A stretch of 58,117 bases of DNA, filler included, from Platydemus manokwari (lineage: Eukaryota), in the NCBI GenBank assembly GCA_037951405.1. It is 5 parts of 5 records of this genome, joined end to end, with 100 filler letters (N's around TTAATTAATTAA, not from the genome) between each part and the next. Parts side by side here need not be neighbours in the genome. Positions count along the whole stretch, not along the records: positions 1 to 11,943 come from JBBMOY010380000.1; 4 more parts are not named here. One strand, 5' to 3'. The position numbers and the translations under genes were made by a program. Below the pieces are notes generated by a model. That model ran no database searches. It was not told the origin of the DNA and saw nothing but the letters and a program-made list of their open reading frames with translations. Shown here in pieces: positions 1 to 48,031 of the stretch; position 1 is the first letter of the stretch, and every line of letters begins with the position of its first letter.

Positions 1-2953
1 GTCAAATTGAAACACATGAACATAATATTGTTGATATCAGAAACATATTAATTGTCTCGATTTATTGTCCAAAGTTTATGGCGATTGATCTTGATTTCCA
101 AGGCGAACTGTTGTCAGCATTTCTGTAGTTGAATTAGAATTATTGACAGTCTGATCCATACTCAAGGTTGTTCTATGGCGCATATTTTATAAGGCTAATA
201 CATATGGGAATCCTAACTGGGTTATATAGCAAAAGGAATTTTTACAATTTGGTTTTGATTTTGATTAACTTACAATTTATATTTTTTGGAATGTTTGTAC
301 AATTTTTTGGTTATATTTCGAGATGCAACCTAAATGGGGATTATGTGCTAGGTGGGGATCCCAACAATTCAACCATAAACCGGTAGCATTGTAAGCACTA
401 TACTCCAACATTAATTCTTACCATCTTTGGGAAAACTCAATTAACAGTTTATAACCTGTTTTATACTGAACAAAATTACTAAGTGTCTATTATCATGTTA
501 AAATTAATAATTTTTCATATATCCAGGTTTTAAATTTGATCCGCCTTCCTTTGAACGGAATCAAAAACAGTTCTGAAATGTGTCATAGGAAAATTTAATT
601 ATTCTGTGTTTTATTTTATTATTAGCAACATTTTTTATTTCTTTTATTATATTAATATTTGTGGTGATTGATAATAACATTAACTATGAAGTTTCATTGT
701 CTCATTTAAAGTAACACAATCGTATTACATTTTTCATTGCTATTTATTGTCATTTCAGTTGAGTTTCAGCAATTTTTAAATTTCACTTCGGTTGGATAAA
801 ACAAATAAAGAATTGAAGAGGCCACTAATGAAGTACTAACATTTGTAACTGATATTTTAATCTATTGTAATTATAATAATACTGCCCCTCCATTGTCTAT
901 ATTCAATAGATTGACTGCAATGGAAAAACCAAACAATAACGGATTATAATGTATCTGTTGTCTTTGAATTACATACTCACGAAAGATTAAAATAAAACTA
1001 ATGAATATAATAAAGTGAATAATTCAGTAAATATTATAAATCATCAACATCAGACAGAAAATAAGGCATGGAAAACCATTAAGAGAAATCACTCTAAACA
1101 TTTGGTGCTAATAGGAACAGTTATCTCCAGTGTAACAACCTTAATGGTGATGATCATAGGATACAGCTTGTACAAAAAATATTGTGTATGAGAAATTAGT
1201 TTATAACAATTAAAGGAAATAATGAATTTGCACAAAAATTATTATTCCAAAAGTTTTAATTATTTAACGGTATTAAGTATCAGCTGGAACATGAAAACTT
1301 GTGTAAAATAATATTTAGTGAAGCTAATTTTTGTAAATATCAATTGGAAATGAATAATATTATTACGATATAAATATGAAATTTAATTTTTGTAAATATA
1401 GAATGGACATAAATTATTGGATGATGATTAATGCGTGTAATGTAAATAAAATATTTCGTGTATTTAAAAAAATTTTGGCGAATAGGAAAAATAAAAGTAA
1501 CCAATAGGAATATTACCCTAAAAATTTCTTCCAATGAAAAAATATTGCATAAAGTAACAACTAATCAAAATTAAGCTCTGCAAACATATAATATCGACCC
1601 TAAAACTTGTAATGTTCATAATTCTGAACAGATTTTTCTATCAACGAACAGATAAGTAATTGATGTTATTTTTTATGTTAGTAATTATTTATCCCAAAGC
1701 AATGGAACCATCAACCACAATTATTCAATTTTTTCCGAGATAATTTTATGTAGGAATCAAGTAAGAGAAAAGGAAAACCTTTGACATAGCCTGAAGAATA
1801 TTCGAAAAAATAAGACTTGCTTAGCAAGCTGAAATATACAGCTCAACAATTGCGAACAATAGTAGATGTTCATTTTAAAGAACAAGGAGGTTTTGAGTTA
1901 GGGGATATAACCCCCAGATTGTCTTTTAACCCATCTATGATTAATATCCATTGCACCTAGTCAGATATCTCAGTCAAATGTGTGAACGAGACAATCGATT
2001 TGAAGAAGTTTTCACCCGTCTATATATAAGAAACAGATTGCTCAAAAAAGTTATTAAAATAACCTAGATTCCTTAATCGTCTGAAGGTATGTAATCACTC
2101 TCTATAAAAGAGATGAAATAATATTTCGAATTTAAAAATCTGACTAAACTAGAGAGATGTTATTCATCATAAAATAAAATTGAAATAGAATTTTGATTAG
2201 CTAGAAGTCCGGTTTACCAAGTCGACTAACTAACAATGCAATTAGTCTTATATTACTTAATGTGTTATAAATCATTATTTTAATGCACTCCGAAACTAAC
2301 TATGTAAACATTAAAATAACAATCGATTAATCTCTCAAATAAAATTCTGATACTCTGTTCAAATAAAATTCGTTTAACAGTTAATAAATTTTGCTTTATT
2401 TAATACATTAATTAATATTACATTACTGTATGAAAGATTTTTAAATTTTTATACAAATTACATTAAATCAATTTAATAAATAATGAATAAATTGTTCAAT
2501 AAATATAAGGTCAACTAACGTTAAATTATAATTTGAAGTAATTATAAAAATATGGTGCTTAAATTAAGAAAAAAGGCCCTTTGACCCAATTTAAAGTAAT
2601 GACTTTTCGTGAGATGTTTAATATTAAGAATTTAATTAAATAATCTATATAGATTTTTGCAATACACTCCACAATTATAAAATTTTATTTGATATTAACA
2701 GCTTGATATATCATATTTGGACTATTGATCATTTTTATATAGATTTTTCTTGGAATTATTTTTGAAAATAGTTTTGCTTATTTCTTAATATTTTAATTTT
2801 AGAAGTTCATCGCAGTGAACTTTATTTTTAGAAAAAAAGAGTAAAAATATATTTTAAAGAAAATCAAATCACAAATCATCATCGAAATTCCCAAATTGAT
2901 TACCTCGAAATTGAAAAATTCTTGGTAAAATTGTTATTTAAATATATATAGCG

Positions 2954-4283: not shown

Positions 4284-4727
4284 AAACCTTGCACAAATAA
4301 TAATACATTTTTTTGAAAATATAAGTTATTAAATAACAAAATTGATCATTACTAATTGTCACATACAACTGGACATAAAAACTTGTCATATACAAAAATT
4401 AATAACATCAATAAGTCAGTTGAAATAAAAACTTGTCATAACATCAATAAGTCAGTTGAACATTGGCATAAAATTGGGATAAACTGCCATTCTGCTCAGA
4501 ACTGATTTGGCTTTTGGATCGGAAAGGTCTGATTTGGGGTATTCTCATCCATAGTTAAAAGCTTATTTGTTTTGTACATGCATATACTGTACGTGCTATA
4601 TAAAGGGTATCTGAGCGGGTTACTTATAATTTATGATTACATGCATTTCTATATAATGTGTGTGCTATCTAGTGGGTTACTTTTAATTTATTAATTTATA
4701 ATTTCGTGCTGAGTGGGGATCCCAACA

Positions 4728-6854
4728 CTACTTTGGAGTTTTTAAAGCCTCGTCCTCGTGGCTTTTAAAGATATGTTGGGGCTTGCCACGGATTTTGGCC
4801 TCCTCCTGCTTCCCCCTTAGTATGATTGGGGGAATTCGAGCCCATGGAATGCTGCTGTCTATATCCACATCCGGTGTGGCATTCCATAGCTCTGTTATTG
4901 GTTGCTTTTCTTGGACTCCTTTTATTGCTTCTGTTGGGAATAACTCTTCCGTGAGTTTTTCGGGTGACGGTGCCGGTGTTTCCATTTCCATCTTCATCTC
5001 TATTTCGTCTTCCCAATCTATCTCTAACACATCTTCCTTGTCAACTTCTTTCTCCATTTTCCCCCTCTCTTTTGCCCATTCGTTATATTCTTTTATTGTG
5101 AGATTCATCTTCTCTGCCTCCTCTCGTATTTCTTTCATCTTTTTATGATCCTCTTGTAGCTCCCCTAGTCGCCCTTTCATCGTTTCTGCATTGTCCCACT
5201 TGTTTTTCATTTCATTAGTTCTTTCTTCAAATTCTTTCATTTTTTCTTGTATCTCCTCTACTTTCCTCCGCATTTCTTCCATTTCCCTTTTGGTTCTTTT
5301 CTCCCATTCCGATGGTTCATCCTCTTTTTCCATAGCTGCCTCATATTCACAGCTCCATCGCAACAACTCTTGCAGGTCTTCATCTTGGTACTCCTCTCAC
5401 TCTGCTATATCTATTCCAAGATCCAACTCTTCTGCTACTTCCTCCACTTGTTGCGTGATAGTTGTCCCTTCCATCGTTCTTTTTCGCTTAAGGGGATGCT
5501 TTTTTAGAGGGAAGTACTCCTCTCCCAGATGTTGTCTGATGGTATCTTCGTATGATCTTTTAGACTCCATCGTCTCTTTTTCTTTCACCTCCAAATCCAG
5601 GGGTATCAATCTCCATACCATTTGTGCTTTTTCTTTTGTCAGCAGAGTCCTCGGTGCAATGGCCACCGAATTTACCCAACTCATTATTGCCACCGCTTTC
5701 TCTTTCTCCTCATTTTCATATTGGTGGACTTTTTCCTCCCATCTCTTTTGTTGAAAGTCATCTTCGTGATCTCTCCATTCTCTCTCTATTGTTTTATATA
5801 TCTCCTTGACACTATCCAACGTGTCTTGGATTCCTTCTTTTTTCATCACTCTATGGATGATCTTAAAGTAAATGTCCTGTATCCTACTGGACACCGATAT
5901 TCTGGCTCTCTTTGGACCTCCTATTCGTGTTTCTTCAGCCAGTTTTTCGTTCACCATGGGAGCTCCATCCAAATCCCTAACTCCCATTACCTCTTCCAGC
6001 CTTACTCCTAGGGCATTTACCTTTTCCTTTAGTTTGTGGCCTACAATTATTTTTTCCTGCCACATCTCTCTCAATCTAACCTTCGCCCAAACTTCATCTA
6101 CCTGCCCTCGAGCATTTGTCTCCATTAATCCGCTCTGCTCGACATTGTATTCCTTAATCTCTGCTCGCGGGCAAATACATGTTTCAAACATGGTTTTCCC
6201 TTTATAATCCATCACACCTACTTATGTTGGGTGATGTTCCCCAAAGAAATCCACGGCGGTTTTTACGTCAATGAAAACTATCTTTGCTTGCTCTTCTATA
6301 GTTAGATTTCTTCGGACAAAACTTAAGTTCCTTTCCAGTGCTTGAAACGGCAAGGGCCTTTCCTTTTCAATGGGTATCACTGGGTACTCTTCTATCCCTG
6401 CCCCCTCTTCCACCATTCTTTGCTCTATGGCAAAAATGGCTGGCAGGTCAGAGCCGCTGATTATTGCGCTCTGATGACTTTTGAGAGTGGTAGTCTTCCA
6501 CTTTTCCTGGGTGAGTTTTAGACGAATCTTCAGTGAGGAGAGGGACTCCACCTCATAATCTTCGATACCCATCTTAATGGTTATCCTTGGGGTTGCCGCA
6601 TGGATCACTATCCTGTGTTTCAATTTAAATATTTAACAGTAGATCCCCAATCGGAACCTTCCCTGGGTTAGGGTATGTATTATAACTAATGTTCTATTTC
6701 TTTTTGTTGGGGATTTCAGTTTATTCGGAATTTCCTCTACTCGTGTGTATCGTCTCATGCCTATTGTGCTTGCAGTGCCTTTAACTATGGATTGCTGCAG
6801 TCCTCTGTAGAATCTGCTGGGGTAGGTTGATTTCTGGGTTTGTTTGATGTTCAT
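4728..6854 (-). pseudogene. ~709-codon accessory gene with a DEDDh (REX4/ISG20-like) exonuclease-fold domain and an acidic coiled coil
   Basis: ORFs 6633-6854, 6222-6623, 5397-6215 and 4728-5366 are all in one frame, separated by single stops (TAA 6633, TAA 6222, TGA 5397). Motif series: KIVFIDVKT / VGVMDYKGKTMFETCICP / IKEYNVEQSGL / KIIVGHKL / VRDL / VKEIY. Confidence 0.7.
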
Positions 6855-7281
6855 TTTCTGAATTACAAAGAATTAATATTGAATTTATTGGCAATAATTC
6901 GATGACAATGATGAGTGAGATGATGCTTACTTTGGAGTTTTTGGGCTGTGATCCCGTGAGCGATTCCAGTCCTTCCTGATTCCCAAGATCGCCACTGGGT
7001 CATCATTGTGATATTTGATTTATTATTTTAAATTTTATTCCCCCTTTTTTTGTCTTACTTTAATCCCCCTATCTGCTTACTTTTACTGTTTGTTGTGCCT
7101 TTTTATCTTTGCTTTATTTTATCCCGCTACCATTACTATTTGTGGTGCATTCTTTTTTTTATTATTTATTATGTCAGTTTTGATGATGACTTTTGATATA
7201 CATAACAGATATTTTTTATAAATAACATGAATATTGCTTATAAATATCAAATATAACTATTTACACGGCATGCTACTGCCT

Positions 7282-9328
7282 TTACAACTCCGTTTCCAAG
7301 ACCCCATCATACATGATGTTTGTGAGTCTATATCTCCTTCTTATTCTAACATCGCGGCTATCGTCATCGTGACTGCCAAAATTACTCCTCCTATTATCGT
7401 CATTATAGTCTCCAACAAAAATACTGCTTCTTCAGTGCAGTGACCGCCTCATGATGCCTTTTTGTGGTTGCTGTTTGTCTTTCGCTTGTCGTTATTGGTA
7501 TTAATTTTGTTGTTAACTGTTCCTGTCCCTGTTTACATATCATCTTCTTTTCGTGATGTACCTCATTATTGAACGTCACTCCCCCTATCTGTTCATAGAA
7601 GTAAACGTCTATTTCTATCGTTGATTGTTCTTCCGGCACCGTTGTCTGTCCTTGTGTGCCATTAGTTATTACTACCTTTGCATTGTTTATATAAACTTGT
7701 GCCGTTAAGCATTTCATTTTTATCCACCTTATTTCTATTCCTGATTCTATTGATTTTACGTACACCCTTCCTTCAATATCTGGTGTTTGCACTACCACCT
7801 CTCTGGCTACTTTTTCCATTGTTATCTGTAATTGAAAAGCTTCCTTGGCTTGGACCTTCCTTATCCTTATCTTATGATTATTGGATTTATCTCCTTGTAC
7901 TTGGTGTTCTATCATCCCCCTGTATATTTTTCTCCAGCATCTTTCTTTGTTTAAACTTATGTTCTGTGCGACTCTCAATCGAAAATCCCTTCTGGGCGTA
8001 TTTTGGTTTCTTACTACGATTGCTCCTGAATAGCTTTGTATGAAGAACTTGGCAAATTTCTCGTCATCCACCATATAATTAACAATCGACTGATGACAAT
8101 TTTGTTCACTTTCCGGTACCATTAGTAATAGCGCTGACACGGCCAAAGCCATTCTTGATGCTACTGGTTGCGCTGCTGCTCTTCTTAATGTATGCATTCC
8201 TACCCATCTTCTCCTGCGGCCTGATGCTCGTCTACTAACGGCTGCTATTGCTGTTACTATGATTAATATCATTATGATTACCAACACTGTTATTACTGCC
8301 CTTTTGGCATGTTCGCTTTGGTGATATTCCTGATGTGACTGTTTACTTTCGTTTTTCATCTTTTCTTCCCTATTTCGTGCAATTATCATTACTTTATCCT
8401 TATCTTCCTGGCATCTTCTCTTTTCATTATAGAACCTCTCTTCTCTCCCTCTGCATCTGCGATTATCCCTCAGCATCCTATAATATTCTAATTCATATTT
8501 AGGGTTGCTAATTCTCTTGCTTGGTTCTTCTTTTACTTCATAGTCCTCCATTGAGTTGTGCGCTACTTGTTGTGGCTTGGGGATTATTACAATTACTGTT
8601 ATTACTTTTTCCTGTCCTTTTTTATTTATTGTCAGTTCCACTTTATATATCACTTGCCATGTCTTATTAGTGAGTTCATTTTGTTGTATTAATTTGAACC
8701 TTCCACTTTTTATTTTATATTTGCCTACGCTTATTATTGTTTCATTTCTATTCTTTCTTCGCATTTTCATGTCCCTTCTTATACTGTTGCTCTCTAATAT
8801 TATCCCTTCCGTGGCATATGCTTTTCTTCTTTCCTCGTTGTTGGTCACCCATTTTTATCATAAATTGCTGAATCTCTATTTTTACTGGTAAATGCAATAA
8901 GTGTTTCTGATAGTCTCGTTATTTTTCCTATTATTATTGTCGTGTTTCCTTCCCTTGTCTCTGTCTTATTTTGCGTGTCGTTTTTCATTGTTCTCCCTTC
9001 AGTTGTTTGTCCCATGGCGCTGCCGATTATTGTTGTTATGAGGCAGTGTAGGAATACTACTCCGGCGATTTCCTTGATTCCACTCTTTCTGAACACCTTC
9101 TTCGCCATCCACTGTATCATCAGATGTCTTTATGTGTAGCGCGCGGTTTTTCCCACCGCTTGTATCACAGCCTGACTGGCTCTTAATATTTTCTTTTTCC
9201 CTTCTGTCATTGTTTCTCTCTCTTCAGCGTATCTCCCTACTTCCTCTGCTAACTTTTCCATTCTTACTCGTGATTCTCTTAGTTGTTCTTCTAAATGTCT
9301 TATCTTCTCTTCCTCCTATATTAATTCA
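7282..9328 (-). pseudogene. env-like membrane glycoprotein polyprotein downstream of integrase, apparently fused to it
   Basis: Reconstructed across TAG/TAA stops and slips in (TA)n and A5 runs. Order: coiled coil, hydrophobic signal (about 9010-9072), region with N-glycosylation sequons, TM (8237-8299), RRASGRRRR, second signal-like segment (about 8102-8152), second ectodomain, TM (about 7350-7425), tail RIRRRYRLTNIMYDGVLETEL*. Confidence 0.65.
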
Positions 9329-11943
9329 TTATATATATTCTTTTTCTAATTGTTCCAGCCATGACTGCTCTTCTTCATCTCCTTCTCCTTGATTCTCTAT
9401 TGCCATCATCATTTTCTGAGTTGCTTTCGGTTTTTGTCGAAGCTTATTCTTATATTCTAGCGCCGGTGTGTCCTCGGCCTTTTTACATCGGTTAATGTGC
9501 ACTACTGTTGGATCCGCATTCTTATTCTTGATAACATATAGATTTGTATCAATGACTTTTACCACTTTATATGGTCCTTTAAACGGTCGTTGCAACTTTG
9601 GCGTTAATCCCTTTTTCGCTTCCGGTGCATAGACTCTCACCTTGTCTCCTATTTTAAAGTTGTGCTCCTTTGCTTTTTGATCGTAGTAATCCTTATATTG
9701 CTCTTGTCTATATTTGTTATTCAACTGAGCCTTCTGGTATACTTTGCTCAAGCTTTCTTTCATTACTGTGACATATTCCTGCTCTTCCATTAATTATGAT
9801 GTTGTTGGTAAATAGGTTAAGTCTATAGGAAGAAACGTTTCCCTTAGGTACATTAAATATCCCGTTGTTTCATTTATTGCCGTATTATATGCAAATAGGC
9901 ATGGTCTTATGTATTCATCCCAATCATTTTGCTGATAGTTTACGAAGTTAGCTAACATATTTTGTAGTGTCTGGTTAAATCTTTCCACTAAACCGTCCAT
10001 TTGTGGATGATATGGAGATGTGTTTAGTTTCTTAATTTTAAATAACTCCGTGGTCTCTTGTATGATATTACTCAAAAAATCCTTTCCTCTGTCGGTTAAT
10101 AATTTACTCGGCGCTCCGTATTTAAATATTATTTCTTCAACCAGAATCTTTGCTAAGGTTTCCGCTTTATGATTCTCCGTTGCAAATGCTTCTGCTGTCC
10201 TGGTGAAATAATCACAAAACACTATTATGTACTTATTCCCCTTAATTGTTGTTGGTAGTGGCCCCATTACATCCATGGCACATAATTCCATTGGTCTTGT
10301 CGCCCGTGGTATCGGTTTCAAAGGAACCTTTTTCCTTCTCCCCGTATTTCTTGTGTTGCACATAACATGCATTGCTTACACCATTGTTCTACATCATTGC
10401 TCATATTTTCCCAATAATACTTCTGCCTTATCTTCCCCAAGGTTTTTTTCCTAGATAAATGTCCTCCTAATATTCCATCGAGGTATACTAATTACAGCTG
10501 TTGTTGCATCTCCGCTGGTACTACCGTTAGTAGATTTACTCCATCTTGATATTTCATAATTACGTCTGCTGTTATCTGGTATCCTGCTGCTATCATTTCA
10601 TTATTCATGATTGCTCCCTCCTTCTTCTTGTCCTCTAGTCTCTTTATTATATTCCTTATCTTTTTTAGGTGGCTATCTCTCATTTGAGCTTCCTTGATAT
10701 CTCTCTCCCCAGTTGTTTTCAACATGCTATTTACAAAAGCTTCTACCGCACTTATCTCCAATATTGATTTTTCCTCCCTTCTCTCTGGTATTCGCAATAA
10801 TGAATCTGCATTAGCATTTGATTTCCCTGATCTTTATACTATTTTTATGTTATGATCTTGTAGCTTAAGTGCCCATTTTATTAGCCTTCTCGAAGTGTCT
10901 CTATGCTTCATAAGGCTCTCTAATGGCTTGTGATCAGTTTTCAATATTATCTCCGTTCCATATATGTATTGTCTAAACTCTTTTAGCGCGAATATTATTG
11001 CTAAACATTCCCTTTCTATAGTTGAATAATTCTTTTCTGCTCCCTTCAGCGATCTACTGGCATACGCTATTGCGTGATCCGATTCTCCCTCATCTTGCTG
11101 TCCCAATACTGCTCTAAGTGCTCCCCCACTTGTATCGGTCATTATTATAAATGGTTTTTCCATATTTGGGTATCTTTAGTACCGGTGCTTGTGTTAGATT
11201 CCGTTTTAATGTTTTGAATGCTTGCTGTTGTACTTCCCCCCATTTTATCTTTAACATACTTTCTGTTTTATTTCGTTTTCCCTTTTCTTTAGATTTCTCC
11301 CTCTCAACTCCTTCCTCTTTATCCTTTTTATTTCTTATCTGTCTATACGCCTCTGCTGCTTTCTTCATTGAATCATAAATTGGCATCGCAATACGTGCAT
11401 AATTTTCCTGAAACCTCCTATAATAACCTGTCATTCCCAAGAATATTTTTGCATCGTTAATTGTCTTTGGTTCTGGAAACTTAGCTATTTTTTCTACCTT
11501 TGTTGGGTCTCGCGCTATTCCTTGCACCGATATTATGTGTCCCAGAAATGATACTGATGGTCTTGTCCATTCACACTTAGTAGGCTTTATTTTTAGTCCT
11601 GATTTTCTTAGTCTAAAAAACACTCTTCCTATATCTATTATATAATCATCAAAATTTTCTGAATAGACTAGTATGTCATCTATGTAAACCATAGCATGTG
11701 GTATATCTGTTAACACCGTGTTCATGAGTCGTTGAAACGTAGCTGGTGCCCCCGTTAATCCAAGAGGCATCTTTACATATTCGTATAATCCTTCTCCTAG
11801 ACAAAAGGCTGTTTTCTCTATGTCTCCCTCGGTAACTTTTACTTGATTATGACCTTTATTCATATTTAATTTGGTATAATATTTTGCTCCATTTAATTTG
11901 TCAAATATCTCTCTAATATTTGGCAGCGGAAAAACGTCCTGCT
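9329..11943 (-). pseudogene. pol: pol (RT, RNase H, integrase), disrupted by stops and frameshifts
   Basis: RT: DVFPLPNI..KLNGAKYYTKLN, MPLGLTGAPATFQR, VYIDDILV, FLGH, FLGMTGYYRRF. RNase H: TDTS, NYSTIERECLAI, TDHKPL. Integrase: GGHL..YYW, AMDVMGP, LTDRG, SPYHPQMDGLVERFNQTL, GPYKV. Frameshift near 11165 and in-frame stops at 10834, 10492 and 9794. The first RT catalytic Asp reads Asn. Confidence 0.95.
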
Positions 11944-12043
11944 NNNNNNNNNNNNNNNNNNNNNNNNNNNNNNNNNNNNNNNNNNNNTTAATTAATTAAN
12001 NNNNNNNNNNNNNNNNNNNNNNNNNNNNNNNNNNNNNNNNNNN
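11944..12043. other. artificial contig spacer (N run with TTAATTAATTAA)
   Basis: 100-nt linker with stops in all six frames; identical at four positions. Confidence 0.98.
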
Positions 12044-23372: not shown

Positions 23373-23472
23373 NNNNNNNNNNNNNNNNNNNNNNNNNNNN
23401 NNNNNNNNNNNNNNNNTTAATTAATTAANNNNNNNNNNNNNNNNNNNNNNNNNNNNNNNNNNNNNNNNNNNN
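23373..23472. other. artificial contig spacer
   Basis: Same N/TTAATTAATTAA linker. Confidence 0.98.
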
Positions 23473-27519: not shown

Positions 27520-28524
27520 TCAATGTGCTTTTGAAAAAGTAATATCGGAGATTGAAAATTGATTTTTTAGTTGATGGTTTTCAGGTTTAAAAATCTTCAA
27601 AACATAATTTTTGAATTTTTTAATCATAATTATATATACAAATGGATTCACCATAGCATTGAAGCCTAACGAAAAATTACAATAATAATAATATCTGGTT
27701 GCATTTTCGAAATTTAATTTCTCCATCATGTTTAAAATATAAACAATCGAATCTATACTGTACGTTACGATATAAAATGCGAAAATAATTATTGATGAAA
27801 TGGTGAATTTGACTGAGATATTCTTTTTGATTGCATCAGTATTATCATTTGATGCGATATCCCTTGAGTTTAGACTAAATATTATCTTAATATATAGGCA
27901 TATCATGATGAGAGCCGGTAGAAAATAACTAAATGTTAACCACAAATACGAATATGCTTTCCAGAAATTTGAAAATGCCTTCATCTCCCATTGAAATTGA
28001 CACAAATAACCAGGCTCATCTTGATTAAAGACCGTATTATTTTTCAATACCACCGATGTTTCCCAGAATGTTGGCATTGCCACCAAAACCGATATAATAA
28101 ATACAATTACAATACCCACTCGATAAGTATTTAGTTTGATATCGCGATATTTGAACGGAAATACCACCACAATGAATCTATCAATTGCAGTAAGTAAAAG
28201 AATATAGCCACTGAAAACAATAGAAAACCAAAAAAAATAATTAGTATGGAATATTCGACAATAAATTTGGTATGCATAGTAATTATTCCAATCAATTCGT
28301 GAAAGATGAGTAAACATTGCATTGATGACACTCAATAAAGTGATAATATCGATCACGGTTTGTAATCTGACTAAAATACTGCTTTTCTTAGAGCCAATTC
28401 TTTGCTTGTGTAAAAAACTGAAAAGAATGACATTACCAATCAATCCGATAATTACTAATATAATTCGGAATAAGAAAAATCCCAATGAATCATTGAAGTC
28501 TTCATTAATATATTTCATTATCAT
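27520..28524 (-). CDS. rhodopsin-like (class A) orphan or peptide GPCR, intronless
   Basis: Seven hydrophobic segments; IGN (TM1), C at the top of TM3, AIDRF, FLP..IM..LY (TM5), NPFVY (TM7). Likely ATG at 28524. Confidence 0.93.
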   Translation of the reverse strand: MIMKYINEDFNDSLGFFLFRIILVIIGLIGNVILFSFLHKQRIGSKKSSILVRLQTVIDIITLLSVINAMFTHLSRIDWNNYYAYQIYCRIFHTNYFFWFSIVFSGYILLLTAIDRFIVVVFPFKYRDIKLNTYRVGIVIVFIISVLVAMPTFWETSVVLKNNTVFNQDEPGYLCQFQWEMKAFSNFWKAYSYLWLTFSYFLPALIMICLYIKIIFSLNSRDIASNDNTDAIKKNISVKFTISSIIIFAFYIVTYSIDSIVYILNMMEKLNFENATRYYYYCNFSLGFNAMVNPFVYIIMIKKFKNYVLKIFKPENHQLKNQFSISDITFSKAH

Positions 28525-29049
28525 TTTTGATAATTGAATAATAATCACTGCTTCTTTCAAGTTTATTGGATAGAACGATAATTTCCTATTGGATATAATT
28601 TTATAAATAAAACCTGAACTATTTATCAAAGTTATGCCTCACTATTGTTGTTTCAATACTCAGAAACTGATAAGACAGACTTGTAAAGTATATAAGTACC
28701 GATGAATATAAGAGTGCAATTGGTTGATATTGATGAATAGGAAGAAATATTTTACTAAATCCTTTTGTGTATGTACGAATAATACTGTTGAAATTATTTA
28801 TTAGCATTAAGACAAATACATTTAATTGCTTAAGTGGTACATCAAAGATGAACAGGGGCTCTAGTAAAAATTAGCAAACATAATTTTTAACCAATGGGAT
28901 TACTGGCAAACAAGAGCTAACTGTTAAAAATCATTCCAATTATAATTATTGATTGAAAAATTAATATTCGAAGCACGGCAACAATATTTCTCATTTAGTA
29001 ATAAATTTTCAAATAAATAGACATGTAGAACCAGATCCGAAGCAAGTGA

Positions 29050-30775: not shown

Positions 30776-31387
30776 CTATACAATGATACACATTTTATTC
30801 AAGCATCCACGAACTTTTTTCCGATGTTTCCACCCCTCAATAACTGTTGTGATAGCACAATCGAAGATCTGTTTCAAACCTTCTTGTGTCAATGCGGAAC
30901 ATTCAAGATATTTCACTGCCGCTATTTTCTTTGCTACTTTTATTGCATCGGTGTGAGAGACGGTATTGGAGGATGACTGTTTTGCTAGATCTGATTTTGT
31001 TCCGACCAATACAATTGGTACTTTTGGACATTGTTGATTGACAATCGGACTCCAATATGTTTCGACATTCATAATGGAAGTCTTATTTATTAGAGAAAAG
31101 CAAATAATGAAAACATCCACATCTTGAAAAGCGAGATTGATTATTGATCGATATTCTTCTTGACCAGCTGTGTCAACGAGAAGCATATTATAACGGATAT
31201 CATCAACAACAAATGTGACAACATAATTATCGAAAACTGTTGGAACATAAGACGATGGAAAAGTTTGGGTTGTGTATGATATCAACATGCTGGTCTTTCC
31301 CACATCACCATCACCGACAATAACAACTTTTAAATCCTTTTCTTTTCCATTATAATCGCAGTTGGCATAACTATTGACGTGATTCAT
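30776..31387 (-). CDS. Rho-family small GTPase, Rac/Cdc42-like, intronless
   Basis: GDGDVGKT, YVPTVFDNY, DTAGQEEY, GTKSDL, ECSALTQ.GLK, polybasic tail and CaaX box CIIV. Confidence 0.96.
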   Translation of the reverse strand: MNHVNSYANCDYNGKEKDLKVVIVGDGDVGKTSMLISYTTQTFPSSYVPTVFDNYVVTFVVDDIRYNMLLVDTAGQEEYRSIINLAFQDVDVFIICFSLINKTSIMNVETYWSPIVNQQCPKVPIVLVGTKSDLAKQSSSNTVSHTDAIKVAKKIAAVKYLECSALTQEGLKQIFDCAITTVIEGWKHRKKVRGCLNKMCIIV

Positions 31388-33506
31388 AATGAGTTCAATG
31401 GAGCTGGTTATTGAGTAGATATATTGTATTTGTATCTAATTATAGATATGACATCATTAAAATCGACATATACACATTTAGAATTGTTCAGTGATATTAA
31501 TGTGTGCATTCTATTGTGTTTTGAATTGTTTCGCTGATATATATCTACGTGTTTTCTTACATCATCTATAATTGTTCTACATAGTAATCGATACGTTTTT
31601 CAAAAATAGTGAAATTCAATAAATTCTCAAAACACAGGATCGGTGCAAGTCCACATTCCATAATTATCGCAATCATTGGTTAGAAAATGATAAATTGAAA
31701 TTCACAAATTACGTGTTAAAATTAAAGGTTTTATTTTGGAATTTATTTATGCCGGTGTCAATTAAAAAAAACTAATTTTTGAAGTGACAGAAAATATGAA
31801 ATTTCAATTTTATTGATTCAATAATTTGTGATAAATATTAGATATAATTGATCAGAGAAATAACGATTTATGTTGATACTTATTTATTTGACAAAATTTT
31901 ATGATATAAGTTTCATCAAATATTTCATAGCAAGTTGGAAATATTTGTTATAAGATAATAACAGGATTTATTTCAAATCATTTCCAATGCAGCTTTGCAA
32001 TGTATAGAACGAAATCAATCAGATTTTAAATTTAGTGAATTATGCTATTGATTTTTAGAACTAGATCAGTTTCTATTAAATAATCAATGACTTATGGATA
32101 ACGTTTGTCCCAATAGAATCTAAAAATTCAGTCTTATCGGAAATCATTAATCACAATCATTATTCGATAAAAATCATTAAATATCGATATTAATATTTCG
32201 TAATCATTGATTAAACCAATCTTCATCGTTAAATGATGACCAAATACACTTCCAAACATAAGTATATTTGTGACGTGAATAACGTTCTGTATTATATTTA
32301 TCCGATAAAGAAAATCCTTATATTTTTTTAGTAATAAGAAAGATCATAAATACAAAGAATACGACGAAGAATATGATAAAGAATATGAAATGCTGTAGGT
32401 GTTATCAATAATTCATGAATATAATTAGATGCTATTATTAGGTTTACCATGAGTACTATTATTAATTTTCAGATTAGTATTATTATCATTATTGTTGTGA
32501 TAAATTATAATGGATCATCACTAACCAGTGGCACGCGATGATAAATGTGGGTTAAATACCGAAAGATTGAAATCTACCAGCAACTTCATTATGAAATGAC
32601 GGACAATTGGTTCTATCCGATGTTGATGTATAAAAAAAGCACAAACAAATCGTTATATTATTGAACTGTCTGTTAGAATTATTAATGATTTCATGAACAT
32701 CTCTCATTACCAATACAGATATTAGTAATACTAATGGTTGTTTTGATTTTTAACAACGGTTACTTATTTTCTTAATGAGATCAATAATAAGGTTGTTTGA
32801 AAGGTTATTTCCAATAATTCAGTGATTAACGTTATTCAATACAATGTTTATCTATTATTAATTTTTATATATGATCGATGGTATATCATGGCATGTCATA
32901 GTTAAAACAAGTTAATAAATCTTCTTTTATCGGTGTCTTTAAATAATATTCAATGATCAGTTGGTTTGAACTTCCAATTTGGACTGGTCATGTCTACTAA
33001 AATTTCATTTTCATTTCAAATAATAAAATCATTTGCAAATTCAGTCTAATTTTAGCACAACAGTTTAAAAAACAAATTATCGATTGAAAAATGTTCAATA
33101 TCAATAAGATAGAATTAATTAGGTAAATGATAATTTTAAAAATGTTTTTTCAATTGATACGGATCAATATCAAGGCCTATAATATTAGTCTGTTAATCAA
33201 TAATTGATAACCACGAATGCACAAAAATCATCATGGCTTGATGACAGTTAAAGCTTTTCCGAACGTTTTTATTATCAACATTTACGCAATAGTTGCTTAA
33301 ACAATACTCGTTATGCGATACGTCTTATCTAGATGAACAGTTAGATATTTCTTTCGATAATTTTTCACAATGCATATTCTTTTCATGAATGACACGAAAT
33401 TTTTTTGAAAAATATTTTCAAAAATCCTTTCAATGATTCTTGAAAGTAATTTTTGGGCATTTTAAATTTAAATTATGAATTCATTTATACTTATATTGAT
33501 GAATGT

Positions 33507-35158: not shown

Positions 35159-35258
35159 NNNNNNNNNNNNNNNNNNNNNNNNNNNNNNNNNNNNNNNNNN
35201 NNTTAATTAATTAANNNNNNNNNNNNNNNNNNNNNNNNNNNNNNNNNNNNNNNNNNNN
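35159..35258. other. artificial contig spacer
   Basis: Same N/TTAATTAATTAA linker. Confidence 0.98.
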
Positions 35259-35423: not shown

Positions 35424-38277
35424 ATGAAATTTATAACATTTTCCATTGCGTTAATTTGTCTGGGAATAAACGAGATATTACCTGTTCACGGGACACATCA
35501 TTGGAAATCTTATGAAAGATATGATAACTACCAATTAGATGATCTGCATTTGATGCATGATTGGGAATGTTGGTATAAGGATTACTATTTAAAAGGTAAA
35601 TTTCCATGAGATAAAAACAATTTGACTTTAGTTTTCAGTTGATCGTTGTCCATCGGAAACTTTGAAATCGAAAGAAAAGATTCCATGTAAGCAATTTCGT
35701 AAATGCAAACGTCGTTGTCGATTGATTTCTGGTATTGAAAAGTGTCGAATTCTCTGTGCTAAGATGAAAAGCAAAATCTCGAAATTTATAAAGGTAATTT
35801 ATAAGGTGAATCAAGATGGAAAATGTCGAGATTCAATTATTTGTGTTTACAAAACCTTGTGTAATCTTGACTGGCCTTCACAGATATACCAAGGTTGCTA
35901 TTATACAAATGACTTTTACGAATGGTGGATAGATCATAAAAAACATTATGAAACTCCAACATTAGTCGATCGGGTCACATTGATTAAACGCAGCAAAATC
36001 TATGATTGTATGAACATTAATAATAATCCCCCTCCAGTAGATCCATTATTAGAAAATACGGTTAAAATCAAAACAACTCGTGGAAGAATGCTCCACCAAA
36101 TCGGTGAGTTATGGTTTCGTGTGAAATTCGTCAAAGATGATATGCTCTACTATATTGGTAAAATGTGGGTTTCTGTTAAATATAGTAAAAATCATCAATA
36201 CTTGAAAATCGGAGATAGATGGTTGAGAATCGTAATTTCAAAATATCAGTTGTACTGCCAGATTCACGATTCATGGATCCCTTTAAAAATATCATTTGGT
36301 GTAACTTATATCAAATTAGGTGAAAGATGGTTGGAATTTTTTATTAAAGGAAAGAAATTCTTTTACAAATTTGGTAGTAAATGGTTGGAAATACGCATTC
36401 TTGATCATGCCGTCTATCATCGGATGGACGAAATATGGTATGAAGTTCAAATAAAGAAAAATAGCGATTTGGTTAAGATAGGGCGTGGTTTTAGGAGAAT
36501 TATTATTGTTTACGATCAAACATTCATTAAATTAGGTAGCCGCTGGTTTGAAATGAAATTGAAAACTGAAAAATATTATATTAAATGGGATAAAATATGG
36601 ATTGAAATAGAATTTGATGAAGATTATATTTTTACATTTATCAATGAAGAACGATATCGACTGAGATTTACAGAATTTTCGATTTGTATACAAATCAGAG
36701 GAAAATGGATTCAGGTTGAAGCTAAGGATCAGAGTCTATTCTTTTACATTGATAAAGCATGGCTCAATCTTTTGGTGGAGAAAAATGATCTATTTGTTCG
36801 AGAGAATGGTGAGTTAACTAGAGTGAAATTCAATGATGAAGATGATCTTCTTTATAAATCGTATTATACTAATCAATCTCGATTTGCAAGAAAAATGCAA
36901 ATGGAACCTGATAAACGATTAGCCACGAATGATTTTTACAAAATCGAAAATTCTCGCAACTATAAACTCATCGGTGGTTATTGGTTTCCATTCAATTATA
37001 CAAATGGGGAATTTCTGTATTTGTTATCAGATGAATGGGTCAAAATGAAAGTCCAAGATGACAAGTGGTTTTATTATGATTTTGATCAATGGATCGAAAT
37101 GAGTATCATTGGTGAAACGGAATTCAATAAGATAAGCGGTCATTGGTTGGAAGTAAAAAGAGAAAAAGATGAATTGTTATATTTGGATTCAAATAGGTGG
37201 CACACAATAAAACTTATCGGCAGACTGGTTTGTTTAAAATTTAAAGGTGAATGGAAATTTTTAAATATCGTTAATGGACAAAAATTTATCCGCTTGGGTA
37301 ACCAGTTTGATCAGCTGCGATTCCATAATACCGATGAGAAAATATTTTATCTAAAGATGGGCAAGAGATGGTTTACTTTAATGTTCCAAGAGAACCAGTA
37401 TTTGATTCAAATCAACAAAGCTTGGATAAGAATTGAATTCTTTAGTCATCGATCATTGCAATTGGTGTTCAACGATGTATGGAGATCAGTGACATTCCGA
37501 GATGATAATGTTTATATAAGGAATGGCAACTGTTGGTTAGAAATGATTTACGAGGACAAGATCATTTTCTTGAAAATTGGTGACACTTATAAAGAAGCAG
37601 AAGTATCATCAAAAGGATACTTTCGCATACGTATAGATAAGAATTTCTATACACTAATCGAAAAAAATACTATTCGATTAAATAATAGACTCATAAAAAT
37701 TTCCTATATTGATGGTAAATTACACATGTATATCAATAATAATTGGCTACCATTGAGGATTACCAAGGATAAAATATTGGTGAAAATAGTTGATTCTTGG
37801 ATCGAAAGCCAAATCAATACCAACGGAGAGACTTTTACTGTGATATTGGACAAACAGAAAATGGAATTGACTTTCGAAAATGGAATATTATGTGAGCTCT
37901 ACTTACAACTGAATGTTCCAGTGAACATTCGATTTAGAAAATTATACTACAATTTTGATGGAAAATGGGTGAGAATTATTGCCAAAGACGATCAACGATA
38001 CTTGAAAATCAATAAAAAGTTGATCAGACTCGGTAAGGATTTTTTGAGACGGAAAATTAAAAAATACAAACTCCAATCAATGTTGAAATGTATGTCATTC
38101 ACATTGCGAAAAAGATATAGAAAAACTGATAAGACTGATAATTATGATCATTATTGGGATGAAGAGGAGACTGAGAACTCTCGACAAGAAAAAAATCCAC
38201 TCAAAAGTCTTAGACGAAAACAGGTCTATTTTATCCGGAAATATAAAAAATATTATAGAGAGAAAATATTCAATTAA
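35424..38277 (+). CDS. secreted ~936-aa protein: signal peptide, Cys-rich domain, about 34 x 18-aa Trp/aromatic repeats, basic tail (2 exons)
   Basis: A GT-AG intron at 35596-35638 (43 nt, phase 1) joins the MKFITFSIALICLG.. exon in frame to the 871-aa ORF; the repeat periodicity is visible in the translation. Confidence 0.88.
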
Positions 38278-39700: not shown

Positions 39701-40128
39701 ATTTTTAATTATTCTCCGTATTCTTGAGTTATTTTTAATGCAAATTATTCTTATTATATATTTTTTAAAATTTACATCAATCTATTTTTGAAATTAAAAA
39801 AACAGCATTATCAGTATATAACGTATCAATTTTAATTAAAATTCACAAGTACATATTCTAATCAAATAATGAAAGCATGTCTAGTGAATAAAAAAGTGTG
39901 ATATCAAATAAAATTTAGAGAAAATCTATGATGTGACTGAAACGGTATATCAAGGTCTATAAGCTAATTGATCGAATAATTAAATTTATTATATACAAAG
40001 GATTGAAACACATACTTTGAATATAAATACTGTTTATCAAATAAACTGAAAATTCAGGATTAACTATTAAAATTTTAAAATCGATTTAAAATGTTGGATT
40101 AATATAATCTGATAAATGCATATCATTA

Positions 40129-41073
40129 ATGAATACCATCAATTCTAATGATGAAAAATTGAAAATCATTATTAATAATGAATGGAAGCTATTAAAACGA
40201 ATTGGAAATGGATCTTTTGGTGAGATTTATTCATGTATAAATATCATCACTGGTCAAGAAGCGGCTGCAAAATTAGTAAAAAACAAAACCAAATTTATCC
40301 AACAACTTCAAATTGAACGAAAAGCTTTAGAATTGTTGAGAGATGGTGAAGGAATTGTTAAAGTATTTTTGGGGGAAAAAATTTGTATTGATAATCGATT
40401 TGTAGCATTGATCATGGATCATTTGGGGCCTAGTTTGGAAGATTTGAGAATCTATTGTGATGGGAAATTTTCATTGAAAACAACAATTATGTTGGCAGAT
40501 CAAATGATTCATCGAATCGAATATTTGCACAGTCGATATTTGATTCATCGAGACATCAAACCGGAAAATTTTCTCATGGGCATTGGCAAAGAATTTAACA
40601 TTGTGTACATCATTGATTTTGGATTAGCTAAACAATATATTCATCCAAAATCCAAGAAACATATACCATTTAGAGAATTTCGTAGCCTTATTGGAACAGC
40701 GAAATATTGTAGTATTAATGCACATTGCGGTTATGAGCAGAGTCGTCGTGATGATTTGGAATCGTTAGGCTATACTTTATTGTATTTTTTAAATGGATCT
40801 TTGCCTTGGGAGAATATAGAAAACTTAAACAAATTCGAACGATTCCATTTGATTCATCATGCTAAATTGAACATCAAATTGGAAAGATTCTGTGAAAACA
40901 TTCCAGTCGAATTTATGACTTATATAAGCTATTGTAAAGGTTTGAAATATCAACAACATCCAAATTATGATTACTTAAGACAGATTCTTAGGAATCTGTT
41001 TGAGAAATTTAATCTGAAATATGATTTTCAATTCGATTGGATTACTAAAAATTCATACAATCGAATTTTATAA
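40129..41073 (+). CDS. casein kinase 1 family Ser/Thr kinase, intronless, with almost no C-terminal tail
   Basis: IGNGSFGEIY, LGPSLEDL, FSLKT..MLADQM, HRDIKPENFL, IDFGLAK, GTAKYCSINAH, EQSRRDDLESLGY. Confidence 0.96.
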   Translation: MNTINSNDEKLKIIINNEWKLLKRIGNGSFGEIYSCINIITGQEAAAKLVKNKTKFIQQLQIERKALELLRDGEGIVKVFLGEKICIDNRFVALIMDHLGPSLEDLRIYCDGKFSLKTTIMLADQMIHRIEYLHSRYLIHRDIKPENFLMGIGKEFNIVYIIDFGLAKQYIHPKSKKHIPFREFRSLIGTAKYCSINAHCGYEQSRRDDLESLGYTLLYFLNGSLPWENIENLNKFERFHLIHHAKLNIKLERFCENIPVEFMTYISYCKGLKYQQHPNYDYLRQILRNLFEKFNLKYDFQFDWITKNSYNRIL

Positions 41074-47931: not shown

Positions 47932-48031
47932 NNNNNNNNNNNNNNNNNNNNNNNNNNNNNNNNNNNNNNNNNNNNTTAATTAATTAANNNNNNNNNNNNN
48001 NNNNNNNNNNNNNNNNNNNNNNNNNNNNNNN
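47932..48031. other. artificial contig spacer
   Basis: Same N/TTAATTAATTAA linker. Confidence 0.98.

Follow-up and report, generated by a model that had tools for sequence, protein, structure and literature searches.

A broken accessory gene of a Gypsy element in Platydemus manokwari carries a predicted REX4/ISG20-type exonuclease domain lacking four of five catalytic residues

The window, i.e. the whole 58,117-nucleotide stretch of Platydemus manokwari DNA analysed here, consists of contigs of about 11–13 kb joined by 100-nt N linkers, each with a central 12-mer providing stops in six frames (11944-12043, 23373-23472, 35159-35258 and 47932-48031), so that adjoining pieces are possibly not neighbours in the genome. 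The first contig carries the following features:

9332..11941, (-), Gypsy pol remnant: RT, RNase H, integrase core and C-terminal domain (Pfam), with stops and frameshifts
7261..9315, (-), post-integrase ORF pieces: hydrophobic segments, a beta-rich stretch, a Thr-rich stalk and a TM segment
4728..6854, (-), accessory gene, broken copy: single frame of 708 codons with three in-frame stops
6405..6836, (-), predicted N-terminal double-stranded beta-helix domain (aa ~7-150), cupin/AlkB-type (fold model)
5769..6287, (-), predicted REX4/ISG20-type DEDDh domain, pseudo-nuclease (aa ~190-362; fold model, sequence matches and alignment)
4731..5759, (-), Glu/Lys-rich tail of the gene (42% E+K in aa 487-620)
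4799..4818, (-), purine tract, PPT candidate, within the last codons of the gene
4706..4727, (-), LTR-type start TGTTG, with 20 of 22 nt in common with window positions 345-366

Elsewhere on this AT-rich animal DNA, uninterrupted ORFs are located at 27520-28638, 30776-31435 and 40108-41073, which we take to be a rhodopsin-type GPCR, a Rho-like GTPase and a CK1-like kinase, respectively (subfamilies from motifs). An open frame of 881 codons at 35632-38277 (+) consists of short repeats of beta type with many Trp, Lys and Ile residues and falls into no Pfam family.

A previous reading of the sequence alone (hereafter the sequence-only reading) had described a single frame of about 709 codons with three stops and had quoted motif residues from it. 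Translation of 6854-4728 contains these residues and yields 708 codons, of which 74 (6635-6633), 211 (6224-6222) and 486 (5399-5397) are stops; the last of these may be either a lesion or the true end. The other five frames of the span contain 14–68 stops each, and 2000 base shuffles gave a mean of 46 stops with a minimum of 24. The Glu/Lys-rich tail is likely to form a coiled coil; it may represent fused small ORFs. A homologue search with the tail found none, and its match to a small downstream ORF of related elements was weak (E 0.8, with an echo at window aa 656-667). A 15-nt direct repeat occurs on either side of the gene (6942-6928 and 4743-4729, minus strand). Both copies read KTPK followed by a stop, an observation made post hoc and possibly due to chance.

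The gene is situated downstream of, and on the same strand as, the RT-RNase H-integrase region (11941-9332), an order typical of Ty3/Gypsy and present in both the window element and its relatives. The contig breaks within RT at the N linker 11944-12043, and the 5' half of the element and its 5' LTR are outside the contig. The post-integrase ORF pieces likely encode a type I membrane protein, with the TM segment past a frameshift near 7430. Neither an env or fusion-glycoprotein family in Pfam nor a profile of the ectodomains of five relatives matched this ORF, formerly labelled 'env-like'. The earlier placement of the gene inside the element holds as to its position downstream of a Gypsy pol, whereas the PPT candidate lies within the last codons of the gene and not after it. 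Summed contig depth rises from 80–112 in most gene bins to 431 in 4616-4887. At window positions 345-366 (-), a related family has another LTR-type start, whose downstream sequence is weakly similar to that at 4727.

Neither a Pfam search nor word-index protein searches gave a match for the window protein; with the family profile, the latter returned two rows. When stops were replaced by X, phmmer searches against the PDB identified ISG20L2 (7yw5, E 0.00096) and ISG20 (1wlj, E 0.0039). In Pfam, 21 of the 41 sequences in alignment A1 match RNase_T. A profile built from 22 complete relatives matches ISG20L2 at 1e-25, and an atlas search with relative P0008 pointed to RNase_T/REX4 at values under 0.9 and to REX4 clusters. 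A model of aa 1-375 built with a 57-row alignment reached a pLDDT of 88.2 and a pTM of 0.87, compared to a pLDDT of 36 for a single-sequence model. Foldseek with this model ranked ISG20 and ISG20L2 first (E 7e-8), and a VIA structural match of residues 191-363 to ISG20 yielded Z 14.5 and an rmsd of 2.4 over 156 aligned residues. Residues ~190-362 are thus predicted to adopt the DEDDh fold of the ISG20/ISG20L2/REX4 type, as the sequence-only reading had proposed. Its connection to the antiviral role of ISG20 was not retained, since the match is to the entire REX4/ISG20L2/ISG20 group and not to ISG20 alone. With cellular ISG20, ISG20L2 and REX4 the family shares the fold, the ExoI–III spacing and the PR, GH and RD motifs; among the matches seen, none of these cellular proteins has a beta-helix N-domain, and their catalytic residues are largely missing from the window protein.

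The ExoI Asp of the window protein is retained (6272-6270). The ExoI Glu site is Lys (6266-6264), the ExoII acid site is also Lys (6023-6021), and ExoIII lacks the His and has Thr at the Asp site (5822-5820, register uncertain by one residue). One of the five catalytic residues (four acids and the ExoIII His) is therefore present, subject to the same uncertainty in ExoIII. Earlier, the ExoII and ExoIII residues had been called not clearly present, which agrees with these substitutions. In complete relatives, ExoIII reads H-x4-D and does not carry the Tyr of the DEDDy type.

The matches also bear on the nature of the substrate. DEDDh folds include DNases, and a role at a DNA intermediate has been proposed for the DEDDh protein of KolobokD in the accessible part of its description (PMC9587614). 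It is conceivable, and in our view rather improbable, that members of the family trim or protect the ends of element cDNA or of single-stranded intermediates. The DNase folds epsilon, TREX1 and ExoX gave lower structural matches (Z 9.7–10.3), whereas the top matches in both sequence and structure are the RNases ISG20, ISG20L2, SDN1 and PAN2, along with REX4 clusters.

The fused N-terminal domain had not been part of the sequence-only reading. It is characterised by the family motifs FY, IPNxLK and IH and is mildly basic in both complete and disarmed members. Structural comparison of residues 1-149 with Ofd2, ALKBH6, ALKBH7 and P4H resulted in Z values of 8.4–8.9 (131–139 aligned), tied with those for cupins (8.4–8.9, 96–103 aligned). 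Many of its viral structural matches are replicases of clostero- and flexiviruses, which carry AlkB domains. When the N-domain family was searched for the HxD...H...R triad, HxD was not conserved in any column, and only 15 of 51 rows had HxD/E at any position. Comparison of a 51-row profile with a narrow set of 80 bacterial AlkB proteins gave a probability of 0.1, within the range of 30 shuffled controls, and an atlas search with this domain from P0020 returned no usable match. The packing of the two domains in the window protein is predicted from the model.

Using aa 187-364 as query against 1.84 billion representatives (E<=0.001), we obtained 65 matches, 60 of which were assigned to the family and 5 to host-type REX4-like proteins by motif reading. 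The family comprises about 60 clusters with proteins of up to 684 aa; look-ups of 20 clusters returned neither an informative name nor a taxon. In addition to the window protein and two cluster mates, alignment A2 contains 54 of the 60 members (six short fragments omitted). Scanning metagenome contigs with a pattern, which may bias the sampled loci, yielded 97 stretches in 95 loci; family ORFs were present in 31 of them, from three assemblies, two of which share elements. In viral contigs, a scan gave 20 pattern matches, none of which was confirmed. RT-RH-IN was found upstream on the same strand in all five distinct contigs with at least 5 kb of upstream sequence; these belong to one assembly and include none of the closest Asp-x-Lys relatives. 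Their RT, RNase H and integrase core are 41–66% identical to those of the window.

The open polyproteins of these relatives (L009:4413-11516, L025:2-8278, L028:2865-7637, L037:1-8904 and L041:3443-10102) are 1,591–2,968 aa in length. A Monjiviricetes-type fusion env precedes PR-RT in frame in L025 and L037, a second aspartyl protease follows the integrase in L009, L028 and L041, and ankyrin repeats follow it in L009 and L041. A type I membrane protein is likely encoded after the integrase in the relative polyproteins. Past the exonuclease gene, a small conserved ORF ends in an FPLWM..P.VVDID-like motif (L028:666-1001, L048:2884-3255, L074:3590-3961, L055:2688-2969, L055:3106-3357, L064:2068-2322 and L003:572-865). 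We know of no family to which it belongs. Short ORFs, likely coiled-coil, are found beside the exonuclease gene at L068:1773-2204, L068:2669-3058, L025:8448-9113 and L037:10854-11288, being duplicated in L068.

That the gene belongs to the host, or to a nested insertion independent of the element, would fit the lack of a visible 5' LTR and target-site duplication (the contig ends within RT) and the 15-nt repeat flanking the gene. We regard this as the least probable explanation of all, because the pol-then-gene order is the same in 5/5 long relative contigs and because sister contigs about 83–85% identical cover the gene in run X1, possibly the sample from which the window itself comes. The two observations together indicate that the gene is cargo of the element family, in line with the earlier description as a true accessory gene.

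Catalytic residues were counted in 67 non-redundant family rows (<90% identity), from which 17 near-duplicates and gappy rows had been removed beforehand. All five residues are present in 43 rows and none or one in 21, the remaining 3 being fragments; no complete row has two to four. The disarmed share may be inflated, since the search query is itself disarmed. Among the complete rows, 26 of 43 have Glu in ExoII (DEDD reads DEED). In the disarmed class, Arg, Lys or His occupies the ExoI Glu site in 14 of 20 rows, and the PR, DE and GIRD surface motifs are conserved. The net charge of the domain is +2.5 in disarmed compared to -1.5 in complete members (p 0.004, with rows that are not independent). 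The exonuclease domain of the window, at -6 by the same count, is unlike the disarmed-class mean.

The Asp-x-Lys motif is common to the window protein, P0005, P0071 and the fragment P0042, which are 28–31% identical to the window protein, and the latter groups with P0005 and P0071 with a support of 94/94. Naturally open-framed disarmed members include P0005 and L009:2779-4251; P0008 and L009:1148-2476 are complete members with open frames. As it is common to distant relatives, the Lys of the window is a trait of the lineage. The sequence-only reading had instead taken the AAA codon in ExoI to fit post-insertion decay. An active nuclease that decayed only after insertion would suit a copy with three stops in the gene as well as stops and frameshifts in pol; we consider it very improbable, given that four sites were lost together, that no complete row retains two to four residues and that Asp-x-Lys occurs in the open-framed relatives. 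The Lys codon also shows no difference among the 40 best of 339 copy differences, which is weak evidence.

It depends on the columns used how many losses are counted. In a tree of the exonuclease domain alone with motif columns kept, which included 4 host-type rows, the disarmed rows form one clade (98/90). The N-domain tree requires 5–7 changes of catalytic state, and a joint tree without motif columns 5–6, of which at least 3 are forced; here a single clade was rejected (p-AU 0.00025). Repeated loss within the family is more likely, with long branches as a caveat. The earlier idea of an ancestral pseudo-nuclease thus stands for the lineage of the window, in which the disarmed state is inherited, and fails for the family at large, 43/67 rows being complete.

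Disarmed genes are under purifying selection: three pairs of disarmed genes showed pN values of 0.30–0.37 compared to saturated pS values of 0.75–0.78. Third codon positions account for 22 of the 39 best-supported of 339 differences between the window copy and the X1 sister contigs (p 0.003). Five X1 contigs differ within the second stop codon of the gene. The copy in the window is dead, like the adjoining pol.

Taken together, the locus represents a broken Gypsy accessory gene for a protein predicted to join a beta-helix domain to a REX4/ISG20-type domain devoid of four of the five catalytic residues, and we consider it probable, by a modest margin, that the protein bound the 3' ends of RNA and left them uncut. 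Complete members, as descendants of the REX4/ISG20L2 group, would be 3'-5' RNases that trim such ends. In several lineages, other residues, mostly basic, would have taken the place of the acidic metal pocket, giving rise to an end-binding clamp. The likeliest use of such a clamp would be to shield element RNA, or to keep hold of host small RNAs, and so to counter 3' decay and silencing by the host, and the mildly basic N-domain could extend the binding surface. The pseudo-nuclease state is older than the insertion of the window copy. Exuperantia and Exd1 provide a precedent: according to the part of the study available to us, both have an exonuclease fold whose active site has been lost and bind RNA via these inactive domains, although they are host proteins of other DEDD subfamilies and not element-borne (bioRxiv 10.1101/2025.08.03.668247).

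Alternatively, the disarmed protein could act by protein contact, either as a scaffold or by regulating the complete paralogue or REX4-type partners of the host. L008/9, L036, L041 and L010, where a disarmed gene stands in tandem before a complete one, point in this direction, as do the surface motifs kept in the disarmed class and the long, variable tails. In the window element, no complete exonuclease paralogue was seen between pol and the LTR start, and a pocket that has repeatedly acquired basic residues would fit nucleic acid binding better, which makes protein contact unlikely, though by no means negligible. A bolder extension of RNA-end binding is that a giant Gypsy lineage has long carried a REX4/ISG20-type nuclease fused to a dead cupin/AlkB-type domain and has repeatedly turned it into an RNA-end clamp with a basic pocket, enzyme and clamp being kept next to each other in some cases, as a two-state counter-silencing device against piRNA or 3' decay pathways of the host. 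We put this forward as a tentative possibility, against which the chances are still considerable.

Malik reportedly noted an exonuclease-like ORF in a nematode element in 2000. The bdelloid LTR retrotransposons Juno and Vesta as well as Terminons harbour a DEDDy (RNase D-like) ORF3 (Rodriguez et al. 2017, PMC5408684), and DEDDy exonuclease ORFs of such elements were also published in PMC5718144, PMC6338049 and PMC6431247, as far as the accessible text goes. Like the window family, the bdelloid ORF3 encodes a DnaQ-fold 3'-5' exonuclease in a separate ORF past pol of an invertebrate LTR element, with DEDD reading DEED. In the available portions of PMC5408684, it was compared with RNase D, mut-7, WRN and Rrp6, its invariant residues are described as intact, and no function is said to have been demonstrated for exonucleases carried by retroelements. 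The window family is set apart from it, as far as that description allows, by the DEDDh type with H-x4-D, by ISG20L2/ISG20/REX4 as nearest proteins, by the beta-helix fusion and by the disarmed class. The giant Gypsy elements of planarians named Burro are resembled by the relatives, whose open polyproteins are 2,200–2,970 aa long (some ended by the contig), with a mononegavirus-type fusion env in frame before PR-RT (L025, L037) and ankyrin repeats (L009, L041); neither feature is visible in the window, where the 5' half of the element is missing. This likeness rests on the description of Burro, which names no exonuclease in the part available (PMC6431247). According to the accessible text, KolobokD likewise carries a DEDDh exonuclease as cargo of an invertebrate mobile element, but it is a DNA transposon and its exonuclease is similar to Exuperantia/TREX/ERI1 and not to REX4/ISG20 (PMC9587614). 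An AlkB-type m6A demethylase of an orchid Gypsy element is comparable as a beta-helix domain carried as Gypsy cargo; from the sections at hand, that protein is active and stand-alone, whereas the N-domain described here has no conserved HxD and no link to the bacterial AlkB profile (PMC9289625).

No mention of an exonuclease was found in the available portions of PMC13524379, PMC10309623, PMC5348765, PMC2774666 and PMC8532177. Searches of the accessible full-text literature brought up no LTR element whose exonuclease is of the REX4/ISG20 type, fused to a beta-helix domain or disarmed; an earlier description may exist in figures, Repbase or Dfam. Exonuclease cargo in LTR elements is known, while we found no printed counterpart of the REX4/ISG20 subfamily, of its fusion or of the repeated disarming in such elements.

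To our knowledge, little is known about transposon-encoded factors acting against silencing in animals. The family is a clear example of pseudo-enzymes arising repeatedly within mobile elements, and its natural pairs of complete and disarmed genes in one element, its open frames and its confidently predicted fold make the question testable by plain biochemistry.
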